From: Stylophora pistillata
Lineage: Eukaryota
Assembly (NCBI RefSeq): GCF_002571385.2
Contig: NW_019217914.1
Coordinates: forward strand, 194,552-258,551
Length of the DNA stretch: 64,000 bases
Direction of reading: 5' to 3'
Part shown: in pieces, positions 22,537 through 25,995 of the stretch
Position numbering within the stretch: position 1 is the stretch's first letter
Layout: each line of letters begins with the position of its first letter
The notes under the pieces: generated by a model
What the model was told of the DNA's origin: nothing
The model's database searches: none
Seen by the model: only the letters and a program-made list of their open reading frames with translations
Position numbers and translations under genes: made by a program

Positions 22537-25500
22537 CTAGACATACGATTCGTAGTAATAGGATGGCCGAGCGATAGCAGGAAACGCTATTTCATTCTTG
22601 ACAACATTCCACCTTAGGGGTCTCAAACCATTCACAATAACGAACAGCAAACCGAGCACGTCTGCCAGAACAGCCATCCACAAGGCAGCCTTCCCTGCCA
22701 GGGCAGTGATCACGATGGCCAACTTCAGAATTATGGAGAACGAGATGTTTTCTGCTACAACACGACTGCAGAAACGGCCGAGTAGTACCAGTTCCGGTAT
22801 TTTCGCTAAGTTGTTGCTCATCAGGGCCACATCCGCCGCCTCCACTGCTAAAGCCGTTCCGCCAGCGCCCATTGCAATCCCAATGTTCGCTGCGGCCAGG
22901 GCTGGACCATCATTGACGCCATCGCCGACCATACCCACTATGTTTTTGTCGCTGTTACCTGATTTGACAACGTTGTAGCGGCGACGGGGACAGCAAAAAG
23001 CACACGGTAACACACATTCCCTAGCCTGTTGATCCTCGCCATGCATCTCGCATTCCTCGCTTTGCGTTCCACCTTGTCTTTCCTTGATCCACAACAATTT
23101 GTCCTGAGGTTTCATGTCGGCGATGCACTCGACTAAGCCTAATTTACTCTTCACGGCCATGGCTGTACGAGAGTTGTCACCGGTGATCATGGCAGTCTGG
23201 ACACGAGCTTTTCGTAGCCAGTCCAACGCACTGAGACTGTTTGGTCTGATGGTGTCAGCAAGAGCAATCATCATGGCCAACTTACCATCCACAGCCACGA
23301 AGATCACAGTTTTACTCTCGTTACACCAAGTGATATACTTTTCTTCCATACACTTATACAGTGCTTTGTTGCCAACATTATTAAGGAATTCATAATTGCC
23401 GATCTGTACAAATTGACCATCGACATAACCGGAAACACCTTGTCCTTCGTGAAGTTTAAAGCGTGTCACTTCAGGAAGGCTGGAAGATCGAGACTTGACC
23501 ATTTCTGCAACACAACCACTAAATTCCTTCACAATGGCTGCCGCAAGTGGGTGGCTGGACTTGCTCTCGAGCGCAGCTGCTAAGCGTAAGGCTGCTCGTT
23601 CGCGCACTCCAAAAACGCAATCTATATCAACAACTTGAAACTTTCCTTCAGTCAATGTTCCAGTTTTATCAAACGCAAGAACCTGCAACTGAGCCAGGGT
23701 TTCAAGGTGAACTCCACCTTTAATCAGAGCTCCTTTACGCGCAGCAGCAGTGATGCTACAGATCACAGCAATAGGGGTGGACATAACAAGAGCGCAGGGG
23801 CACGCTGTGACCAGAAGAACAAGGGCCCGTACTCCCCACTTCTTTAACTCCTGTGAGTAGGTTCCCACGCCTGCAGCACCGAGAATGGCTGGAATAACAA
23901 ATACCAGAGTCGCAACAACGACCAGAGTTGGAGTGTAATACTTGGCAAACCGGTTTATGGCGACTTCGGTTCTTGCTGAACTAGTCTGGGCTTCTTGAAC
24001 AAGCTGAGCAACTCTAGAAACTGTAGAAGATGACGCGTCTGATGTGGTCTTCACTTCCAAGTAGCCATTTTGATTGACTGTTCCGCTGAAAACTTTGGAT
24101 CCCACAGTCTTCTCGACAGGCACAGATTCGCCAGATACCGAACTTTCGTCTACAGCAGCTCGTCCTTTTACAACTTCACCATCCAAAGGAATAAGCTCTC
24201 CTGGCCTAATGGCGATGGCAGTTCCTATGGCAACTGATTCCACCGATACAGATTCGCCAGTGTTCGCTAATATCGCCGCCTGTGGTGCTTTGAGCATGAG
24301 CCCAGAGATTGTCCGCTGGACTTTGTACATGCAAAAATTTTGCAGGGCCTCGGCGAACGAGAATACGTAAACTACAGCGGCACCCTCCAGCCACTCCTCA
24401 ATACCAAGCGTTCCCCCTATGGCGATAAGCATTAGAATGTTGATGTCGACGCTACAGGTCTTGATAGAAACATACGTTTTCTTGAGGACTGGAAATATAC
24501 CGAACACAATTTCCGCAATGGCCGGCCATTTATACCAGGAGGCATCACAGAAGAACGCCACAACGCCTGTCATCAGGAGAACGGTTTGGAACAAAAGATA
24601 AATCAGAAAAGTCGATAAGGACGGCGGGAGACTTTTATTATCTTCGTCGTATTGTCGGGACCCAGTCTCCATGATGCTAGCCCCCAAATGCATGCGGTTG
24701 AGTGTACTGACAAGCTCGGTAGCGGACGTCACTTCCGGGTCGTGACGGACATACACGACTCTCCCGATCACATTGACTGCAATCGATTTCACGCCTTCTA
24801 ATGGTTCCAAGGATTCTTGAACGAGTGCACTTTCCATTGCACAGCAAATGTTCTGCACTCGTAGTTTGGTGGTGCTTTGGCGTATCACGGGTTTCTTCTT
24901 CGAGCTGTCGTCGAGTTCCTGAATACCTGGTGACAAGGGAGGGGTGATAGGATAAAAACCACTGCGGTCTGTCATTGAGATCCTGTTGACAGATCGATTT
25001 CCATCGCAAAGTTGCTCAACTGACAATTTAAGCTGGGATTTTTGGCAGCAATCGTCCCCACGTGGTTTCAGCGTGAAACCATTACAAGCTTGACTCTGAC
25101 AGCAATTGTCTTCCACCGGAGAACACGTGATAGTCAATCGTGGATTGCGTAACTGACATGTCACCTGACCACGTGAAGTTCGACAGGGGCCACCAGTTTC
25201 GCAGCGAGTTAACACGGAGCTCGCACCCGCTGAACTGGACGGTCTACCACTGTCTTTATCCGTGCAGTTGCCACTCGTTTGACAAGAATCCCCACAGTCA
25301 TCTTCAACGGTTCTTCCACAACAATCAAGGCTGGGGTTTCTCGAAGGCCCACCGGATTCAGTTGAATTTCTCTGTGGGATTTCCCTCTCAGTAGTGGTAT
25401 TAGTTTGTGCTAGTTGCCCTGACGTTTTTTCGCTTGAAGTGTCCTCTTTCTCTTGTGGTGACTTCACCTGAGAGCAGCAGCTGCCTTTGACAGGTTCATC

Positions 25501-25995
25501 TCTTCTTCCCTCGTTGATAGTATCCGAGCAACACTTACTTCGGCAAGAGTCGGCTGCTTCATCGCTTAACTGCTTGGTTGCTGAAGCAGAAGGCCAAGGA
25601 CTACACTGACTTTCTTCATTGCAAGAATCCATCTCGTCATCGCTGCAGCTCCTGGGCTGTTTTGAACAAGAAGACGTACACGGGTTTCTTGCCACTTCTT
25701 CTCCATACAAATCTTTCCCATCCTCACAACAGCTTTCAGTTAGTCCTGATGCAGAAGCACAGCATGGCTTGCTCATCTTTTCTTCGTTACCACAAGTTTT
25801 GGACGGATATAGATCTATGGAATTCAAACTACTACGCCATTTTGCCTCAGAATTACACTTAGTTGCAATCTCACCATCTTTCAGGAAGGGAAAAGCATCG
25901 TCCAAATTTTGATCTCCATGGTAACAATCGCCGCATTCGCAAGAGTCTTCGGGTAATTCATCCGAACAACAGTTGCAGTGAAATTCTTGACACAT
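22537..25995 (-). CDS. P1B-2 type Zn/Cd-transporting P-type ATPase (plant HMA2/3/4- and ZntA/CadA-like) with Cys-rich N-terminal extension
   Basis: Uninterrupted 1152-aa ORF. HMA domain with ICCAME (CCxxE); A-domain SGES; membrane CPC; DKTGT; SHP; TGDN; GDGVND; Lys in SIILK and Asp/Gly in LADVLG. AG acceptor at 26009-26008 just upstream of the ATG; AATAAA on - at 21948-21943. Confidence 0.93.
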   Translation of the reverse strand: MCQEFHCNCCSDELPEDSCECGDCYHGDQNLDDAFPFLKDGEIATKCNSEAKWRSSLNSIDLYPSKTCGNEEKMSKPCCASASGLTESCCEDGKDLYGEEVARNPCTSSCSKQPRSCSDDEMDSCNEESQCSPWPSASATKQLSDEAADSCRSKCCSDTINEGRRDEPVKGSCCSQVKSPQEKEDTSSEKTSGQLAQTNTTTEREIPQRNSTESGGPSRNPSLDCCGRTVEDDCGDSCQTSGNCTDKDSGRPSSSAGASSVLTRCETGGPCRTSRGQVTCQLRNPRLTITCSPVEDNCCQSQACNGFTLKPRGDDCCQKSQLKLSVEQLCDGNRSVNRISMTDRSGFYPITPPLSPGIQELDDSSKKKPVIRQSTTKLRVQNICCAMESALVQESLEPLEGVKSIAVNVIGRVVYVRHDPEVTSATELVSTLNRMHLGASIMETGSRQYDEDNKSLPPSLSTFLIYLLFQTVLLMTGVVAFFCDASWYKWPAIAEIVFGIFPVLKKTYVSIKTCSVDINILMLIAIGGTLGIEEWLEGAAVVYVFSFAEALQNFCMYKVQRTISGLMLKAPQAAILANTGESVSVESVAIGTAIAIRPGELIPLDGEVVKGRAAVDESSVSGESVPVEKTVGSKVFSGTVNQNGYLEVKTTSDASSSTVSRVAQLVQEAQTSSARTEVAINRFAKYYTPTLVVVATLVFVIPAILGAAGVGTYSQELKKWGVRALVLLVTACPCALVMSTPIAVICSITAAARKGALIKGGVHLETLAQLQVLAFDKTGTLTEGKFQVVDIDCVFGVRERAALRLAAALESKSSHPLAAAIVKEFSGCVAEMVKSRSSSLPEVTRFKLHEGQGVSGYVDGQFVQIGNYEFLNNVGNKALYKCMEEKYITWCNESKTVIFVAVDGKLAMMIALADTIRPNSLSALDWLRKARVQTAMITGDNSRTAMAVKSKLGLVECIADMKPQDKLLWIKERQGGTQSEECEMHGEDQQARECVLPCAFCCPRRRYNVVKSGNSDKNIVGMVGDGVNDGPALAAANIGIAMGAGGTALAVEAADVALMSNNLAKIPELVLLGRFCSRVVAENISFSIILKLAIVITALAGKAALWMAVLADVLGLLFVIVNGLRPLRWNVVKNEIAFPAIARPSYYYESYV

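Follow-up and report, generated by a model that had tools for sequence, protein, structure and literature searches.

A 64,000-nucleotide (nt) stretch of the genome of the stony coral Stylophora pistillata (contig NW_019217914.1 of assembly GCF_002571385.2, positions 194,552–258,551; hereafter the window) carries on its minus strand a gene for what its sequence identifies as a P1B-2 (Zn/Cd) ATPase, a predicted exporter, whose metal-binding HMA domain is preceded by a long tail rich in cysteine pairs. According to a 2023 review, the P1B pumps of animals are confined to the P1B-1 copper class, and the dispensability of zinc pumps there is not understood (PMC10654040); for Cnidaria, the statement that animals only have P1B-1 pumps fails. 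An earlier note on this DNA, which drew attention to the tail, overlooked this main point, a P1B-2 pump in an animal. The tail itself is a real feature and appears from its sequence to be under selection for Cys pairs, a di-Cys terminal domain placed at the N-terminus of an animal P1B-2 pump. The type of tail alone has precedents in plant HMA4, yeast Pca1 and protist pumps; new here are the animal P1B-2 clade, the settling of the contamination question and the link to the reported lack of metallothioneins in cnidarians.

A cysteine-pair-rich tail on a P1B-2 pump

The gene is a single open reading frame (ORF) of 1,152 amino acids (aa; window 22537–25995), its coding sequence (CDS) uninterrupted by introns. 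Before the HMA domain lie 374 residues with 38 Cys, 55 Ser and 60 Asp plus Glu; the other 778 residues of the protein hold 19 Cys. The description in the earlier note, of about 370 Ser/Asp/Glu-rich residues with roughly 38 Cys by hand count and eight Cys-Cys (CC) pairs, is borne out, the Cys number being exactly 38 and the pairs exactly those named there (NCCS, PCCA, SCCE, KCCS, SCCS, DCCG, NCCQ and DCCQ), at residues 9, 78, 89, 155, 173, 225, 298 and 316. Shuffled versions of the tail hold a mean of 3.45 pairs and reach eight or more in 0.56% of 20,000 shuffles. The tail has 2 His and 21 Lys in its 374 residues and is hydrophilic, with a top 19-residue hydropathy of 0.02 and only short hydrophobic patches; a search for hydrophobic segments found no signal peptide or membrane segment in it, and the Stylophora tail contains no tandem repeats. 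An AlphaFold2 model built from 20 sequences gives it a pLDDT of 22–42 and nearly no secondary structure (whole-model mean 46.5), and without metal the tail is predicted to be disordered. A distinct pattern stands out in its first 26 residues, C-x-E-x-H-C-x-C-C-x8-C-x-C-x2-C-x-H, with 7 Cys, 2 His and a Cys content of 27%.

Metallothioneins are small, free-standing proteins that are about a quarter to a third Cys and have few aromatic residues. The term ‘metallothionein-like’, which had been applied to the coral tail, suits its composition only: the tail is 10% Cys and is fused to a pump. At E ≤ 1 none of the Pfam families, those of metallothioneins among them, matches it, and no metallothionein profile matched any of six homologues at E ≤ 0.05.

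The class of the pump follows from the remainder of the protein. Pfam recognizes there an E1-E2 ATPase domain, a HAD domain and a weak HMA domain (residues 378–432, E = 1.2e-4, under the curated cut-off), the last of which shows the element order beta-alpha-beta-beta-alpha-beta in the AlphaFold2 model. TIGR01512 (Cd family) scores 440 bits against a cut-off of 313.5, and TIGR01511 (Cu) scores 313.5 bits, below its cut-off of 397. For comparison we scored 7,995 candidate homologues; counts over 100 below refer to the best 100 of the 120 matches listed, which score at least 603 bits (the next scores 452), their clade being assigned by score and tree. The residues C732, P733, C734, D776, K1091 and D1112 are invariant in all 100. 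The P-type motifs DKTGT (776), HP (815–816) and GDGVND (1024) are all present, and the TGE loop of the A domain reads SGE. The fourth transmembrane helix (TM4) carries the expected CPC(x4)SxP as CPCALVMSTP, with CPC in 100/100 homologues and a strict SxP in 82, and TM5 carries the N(x7)K described as a P1B-2 signature (ZntA K693; PMC6305203) as N1083 to K1091, the whole pattern recurring in 98/100 and the Lys in all. In TM6, where DxG(x7)N is expected, the pump retains D1112 and, ten residues further along, the Asn, and the Gly is shifted by one (DxxG) in 92/100 homologues. The CC of the HMA motif is present in 87/100, the remaining 13 being unaligned at that site. The C-terminal tail of the pump is about 27 aa long and Cys-free, and it ends in ESYV, which we take to fit the class I PDZ-binding pattern [ST]-x-[VIL]; such an end occurs in 44 of the 59 long-tailed homologues and in 6 of 165 non-cnidarian proteins. 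A search of the Stylophora genome gave one full-length copy and four further, short matches, which resemble exons belonging to other P-type pumps.

The tail is in frame and transcribed with the pump

Four RNA runs (X9, X13, X22 and X23, about 1.9 Gb each) were mapped over window positions 21500–29480. The raw reads lie almost all in the orientation of minus-strand RNA, with a depth over the CDS of 0–28 per strand and bin. X22 covers every bin of the tail and X23 all except one (24971–25237), while single contigs of X9 and X13 run without a gap from the 3′ untranslated region (UTR) through the pump into the tail. None of the 15 joints listed, of 43, falls inside the CDS. The joint that removes a 5′ UTR intron is seen in X23 (13 reads from 2 starts), in X22 (1 read) and in X9 (one contig), and X13 does not show it. 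The spliced form has an in-frame TGA 12 codons upstream of the start Met with no in-frame ATG between, and the context of this Met (M1) is conserved in orthologues and even in short-tailed paralogues. Because of this upstream stop and the conserved M1 context, we rejected a downstream main start (M74, M122, M341 or M387), one of the outcomes that the earlier note had named as refuting its claim; a minor isoform may begin at M341, where two database proteins begin. The tail is thus real coding sequence, in frame and transcribed with the pump, and we infer that it is translated as part of it.

A cnidarian clade of P1B-2 pumps

Taxon names accompany 13 of the 100 homologues and are all cnidarian: Oculina (3), Montipora, Acropora (2), Actinia, Nematostella (2), Dendronephthya, Clytia, Hydra and Sanderia. 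Trees of the pump core (178 rows in FastTree, one fragment having been dropped, and 52 rows under LG+G4 and LG+C20) unite the cnidarian rows in one clade with a support of 100, within which Anthozoa are split from Medusozoa, and place as its sister a protist clade with a support of 99–100. The sister clade has only two named members, both ochrophytes (Pelagophyceae sp. CCMP2097 and Ochromonadaceae sp. CCMP2298). Names sought for 26 of the 145 non-cnidarian representatives included no other animal, most of those sought giving no name. A metagenome scan on generic motifs yielded 80 loci of 28–37% identity, which were set aside. An approximately unbiased (AU) test rejects a clade of cnidarians with green plants and algae (P = 0.003); a clade of cnidarians with bacteria is not rejected (P = 0.16).

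Transfer from a eukaryote is the origin we lean towards for the pump, short of an even chance; vertical descent with many losses is a serious possibility at a somewhat lower level, and a bacterial donor is unlikely. The intron-free CDS fits transfer or retroposition.

Origin of the sequence from a contaminant or symbiont was considered and rejected, because exons for a nuclear receptor and for PH, PDZ and WD40 domains lie in the same window and the gene itself is spliced. Two RNA runs carry the label coral. A single IB-2 pump in Nematostella had been called probable horizontal gene transfer or contamination (Hanikenne and Baurain 2014, PMC3922081); with a P1B-2 clade that spans Anthozoa and Medusozoa, that lone Nematostella gene is no contaminant. 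Three genes of A. digitifera were tabulated as K01534, Cd/Zn-exporting ATPase, and are not discussed in the available portion of the text (PMC3750612), and the database names of the homologues already include ‘cadmium/zinc-transporting ATPase HMA3-like’. Our literature search, mostly outside subscription journals, turned up no publication that deals with this clade of cnidarian pumps or with the tail.

A fixed module and a drifting field of Cys pairs

Among the 100 homologues the tail is at least 200 aa long in 59 and shorter in 27, the motif used for cutting being absent in 14. All except one of the 59 long tails hold 4–21 CC pairs. Sixteen tails, taken from stony corals, anemones, one soft coral and one jellyfish, were tested against shuffled versions, and every one of them holds more CC pairs (P ≤ 0.0085). 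The 26-residue, 7-Cys module occurs in 36 of the 59 long-tailed homologues, Actinia included; of the 23 without it, 13 are near-identical proteins called from a later Met.

Cys retention was scored over 22 orthologues by means of an identity matrix, in which a Cys match earns nothing extra. Aligned Cys are kept at 584 of 746 positions (78%), as against 538 of 1,047 (51%) for Ser, 53% for Asp, 47% for Glu and 39–55% in shuffled tails, and retention is strong to Oculina (33/38) and Actinia (21/31). The conservation of Cys against a fast-evolving background that the earlier note had looked for thus exists among stony corals and is absent in the comparison with Nematostella and Dendronephthya. CC content is rebuilt by lineage-specific repeat units with periods of 32 aa in Montipora, 17 in P0052 and 10 in Sanderia, and tails reach 717 aa and 84 Cys. 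On these sequence patterns the tail divides into the fixed 26-residue module and a remainder that keeps CC density rather than position, and selection appears to act on how many CC pairs there are and not on precisely where they lie. The jellyfish Sanderia has 14 pairs in its tail.

In several short-tailed proteins the module has decayed (C-x-C-C has become C-x-F-S, for instance), the CC region is gone and ESYV is mostly missing; CCxxE and CPC are still there. Such a combination, in which the core is kept and the tail Cys and often ESYV are lost, is what would be expected of a regulatory add-on.

Some details of the protein family stand beside these results. In two Montipora proteins (P0043 and P0044) the tail has grown to 654–717 aa through a 32-residue, CC-containing tandem repeat, and the Pfam matches to Virulence_fact and PAC3 on Montipora tails look spurious. 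Proteins P0045, P0047, P0060–P0062, P0031 and P0034 comprise tailed and tail-reduced paralogues, some of which agree in the length of their longest contig, and a second coral pump type that ends in KKLN and has little or no tail; a tandem expansion is likely. The tail-less Hydra pump (P0100) begins with EETPLI at residues 6–11, which fits an acidic dileucine sorting pattern, and this pump may go to an internal compartment. Within the P domain of the Stylophora protein lies a Cys-containing insert of 40 residues (with FCCP; residues 975–1015, window about 22950–23075) that has no equivalent in ZntA or the plant pump; the jellyfish protein has a shorter version.

Features of the coral pump gene in the window, with the evidence for each
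Feature	Window position	Strand	Basis
N-terminal Cys/CC-rich tail, residues 1–374, predicted disordered and cytosolic	24874..25995	-	Composition, hydropathy, pLDDT 22–42 per 10-residue block
Fixed-spacing module, residues 1–26, candidate folded metal cluster	25918..25995	-	Homologue pattern and alignment
Ser/Thr/Pro-rich linker ahead of HMA, residues ~335–373, conserved among stony corals	24877..24993	-	Alignment, SP/TP sites
HMA metal-binding domain, plant-type CCxxE (C384, C385, E388)	24661..24873	-	Pfam HMA 378–432, model fold order
P1B-2 ATPase core with M522, E537, F545, CPC 732–734, DKTGT 776, HP 815, GDGVND 1024, K1091, D1112	22612..24660	-	TIGR01512, ZntA 4UMV alignment
C-terminal E-S-Y-V and stop	22537..22551	-	Homologue C-termini
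5′ UTR intron, GT-AG, 3135 nt	26008..29142	-	RNA joint 26007–29143
Non-coding exon with in-frame TGA	29143..29204	-	RNA joint; upstream edge from acceptor-like site (putative)
3′ UTR, at least this length	21500..22536	-	Stranded reads, contigs X9 record 9 and X13 record 1

The neighbouring animal genes comprise a multi-exon nuclear receptor (window 4218–8900), a PH-domain ORF (16133–16609), a PDZ-domain ORF (51014–51895) and WD40 exons (58817–59969). Inside the 5′ UTR intron, at window 26406–27768, lies a fragment of a Penelope-like retroelement in the form of a 678-nt perfect inverted repeat with pieces of a GIY-YIG ORF; it has a 16-nt direct repeat on both sides (26391 and 27795) and is not part of the pump. 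Its RNA depth is far above that of the pump, with reads that show many differences, as for a multi-copy element, and some RNA reads connect both of its flanks.

What the tail may do

By analogy with characterized pumps, the tail very probably binds several Zn/Cd ions. We postulate, with modest confidence and by analogy with the C-tail of AtHMA4 and the N-terminus of Pca1, that it serves as a Zn/Cd-binding sensor that gates the activity or the trafficking of the pump. Rising cytosolic Zn/Cd would load the CC pairs and the 26-residue module, with about nine ions if scaled from the 44 Cys and roughly 11 Zn of AtHMA4, and this would free the pump from a restraint or let it move on to the plasma membrane, with the C-terminal ESYV as its possible anchor there. 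The tail might also hand metal to the CCxxE domain and from there to the CPC/Asp site.

A number of observations weigh against this reading. Cys positions are not conserved to Nematostella (14/32; shuffled tails 39 ± 8%) or to Dendronephthya (17/35; 40 ± 8%). The comparison with the nearest relative (P0002) shows little excess, Cys being kept at 25/34 as compared with 69% of the other residues, and the Stylophora tail retains only 33 of 52 aligned Oculina Cys, so that constraint may be loosening, with some Cys decay in the Stylophora lineage. The Hydra and Clytia models have N-termini of only 28 and 43 residues, and together with the 27 of 100 homologues with tails below 200 aa they indicate that the tail is dispensable in some pumps. 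The low pLDDT of the tail argues only weakly for disorder, the model being poor overall, and DxxG in place of DxG means that the substrate may differ from that of ZntA.

Among other explanations, the one that fares best makes the tail a bulk sponge, a membrane-tethered substitute for metallothionein that stores Zn/Cd. Metallothioneins are reported absent from cnidarian genomes (PMC5454826, PMC10588955 and PMC12250223), and both the expansion of tails to the lengths and Cys numbers given above and the keeping of CC number rather than position would suit storage. Its capacity would, however, be bound by pump copy number and is unlikely to match metallothionein levels, and RNA depth over the CDS was 0–28 per strand and bin; in addition, the Hydra pump lacks the tail, phytochelatin synthase is reported in Acropora and the module was not found free-standing (among proteins of 30–632 aa, in a weak search that required three shared 5-residue words). 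The ESM Atlas gave no usable match for tail or module, and PF00131 found nothing in the Stylophora genome, a result that is uninformative since 14 control genomes were silent too. We consider the sponge unlikely.

A joint reading, somewhat more doubtful than the sponge, is that an ancestral cnidarian took its P1B-2 pump from an ochrophyte-like protist and added animal trafficking signals, the di-Cys N-tail and module acting as a built-in metallothionein. If this were true, one protein would sense, buffer and export Zn/Cd in animals without free metallothioneins, and tailed and tail-less paralogues would correspond to regulated and constitutive pumps.

Slightly less probable again is a switch of the Pca1 type, in which the tail would hide a degron, the metal-free pump being destroyed at the endoplasmic reticulum and rescued by Cd/Zn binding. 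The Cys-rich region sits at the same end of the protein as in Pca1 (PMC10654040 and PMC11050377), its 21 Lys are at hand and the fixed 26-residue module could fold on metal; yet the degron of Pca1 is hydrophobic, and the coral tail is hydrophilic with short patches only.

The tail could instead be a neutral low-complexity linker, or its Cys could serve a non-metal role such as S-acylation or redox chemistry, with only the first 26 residues mattering. Lengths that range from below 100 to 717 aa, with repeat expansions and losses, and the small Cys excess between closest relatives would be expected under such an explanation. It is nonetheless improbable, since it has to contend with the CC excess in every tail tested from stony corals to jellyfish, with a Cys retention far above that of the equally common Ser, with the recurrence of CC/His-rich N-tails on pumps of the sister clade and with the plain fact that the tail is on a metal pump.

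That the C-terminal domain of plant HMA2/HMA4 was moved to the N-terminus is scarcely credible: Cys and CC density are similar and both pumps possess the CCxxE domain as well as an inlet-funnel Asn, but when a profile was made from 16 cnidarian tails, its scores on seven plant-type C-tails did not exceed 7 bits, near reversed controls, the best BLASTP match of the tail against P0149 reaches only E = 0.48 and the AU test rejects the required clade with the green lineage. Of the two histories put forward in the earlier note, a convergent or a relocated tail, convergence, or divergence beyond recognition, fits, and relocation is not supported. A Zn/Cd sensor of this kind would have arisen apart from the plant C-tail or would already have been present on a pump that cnidarians have in common with the protist sister clade.

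The cnidarian pumps offer an animal system for asking what a zinc pump does, and for Zn/Cd handling in Nematostella, Hydra and reef corals they are direct candidate genes. The reported absence of metallothioneins makes a buffering role testable in cnidarians. The tail also lends itself to asking, as a natural test, whether one and the same kind of pump acquired di-Cys metal sensors on two occasions, once at either end, and for this the tailed and tail-less paralogues are built-in controls.

Comparison with known systems

In design the coral protein is close to AtHMA2 and AtHMA4 (PMC6255694 and PMC6305203), which likewise have a P1B-2 core, a CCxxE N-terminal domain and an inlet-funnel Asn, together with a long hydrophilic tail in which Cys make up about 10% and CC pairs recur every 25–30 residues; the CCxxE motif is described for plant HMA2/4 (PMC6255694). 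Set against the seven plant-type C-tails, two further candidates having been dropped as they could not be cut, the Stylophora tail has 10.2% Cys as compared with 9.5% and 2.1 as compared with 2.2 CC pairs per 100 aa; the comparison of tail make-up gives 11.3 as compared with 9.5% Cys and a median CC spacing of 26 as compared with 28. With its 44 Cys and 13 CC pairs, the tail of AtHMA4 can bind about 11 Zn below 10 nM; the di-Cys motifs are required in planta, and deletion of the tail mislocalises the pump (PMC6255694). Stepwise deletion of the HMA4 tail raises Zn/Cd tolerance in yeast (PMC10654040). Unlike these C-tails, the coral tail is N-terminal, nearly free of His and opens with a fixed 7-Cys module; the pump ends in a short, Cys-free C-terminus of PDZ type, its host is an animal and the tails share no likeness of sequence.

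Yeast Pca1 resembles the coral pump, by description only, in having a Cys-rich N-terminal extension on a divalent-metal-exporting P1B ATPase. Its N-terminus is a Cd sensor that binds Cd and not Zn and includes a hydrophobic degron (PMC10654040 and PMC11050377); by the same descriptions it differs in that its Cd-binding region hides this degron, the coral tail being hydrophilic and CC-based. In the protist sister clade the HMA motif reads N-[ILMV]-CC, and members (P0133, P0134, P0141, P0160, P0162 and P0182) have N-tails of their own of 231–359 aa with 4–11 CC pairs, which are mostly His-rich and bear no clear likeness to cnidarian tails (at most 10.6 bits). With Pca1 and these protist pumps also Cys-rich at this end, the N-terminal position is less strange than the earlier note held.

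Among structures the best match is Shigella sonnei ZntA (4UMV/4UMW, E = 7.6e-88). At hand-counted positions its M187, E202, F210 and E214 align to M522, E537, F545 and E549, and its C392, C394, K693 and D714 to C732, C734, K1091 and D1112, the roles of the ZntA residues being taken from PMC6305203. ZntA differs in its CxxC HMA motif (CCxxE in the coral), in E184 and D348 (Asn in the coral, which departs from ZntA by Asn at two sites of the inlet funnel) and in the DxG of TM6 (DxxG in the coral), and it has no counterpart of the 374-residue tail. The Nematostella IB-2 ATPase of PMC3922081, finally, belongs to the same clade as the coral pump; that study had one animal sequence and does not, in the text available, mention the tail, and here the gene stands amid animal genes, is spliced and belongs to a family that spans Anthozoa and Medusozoa.

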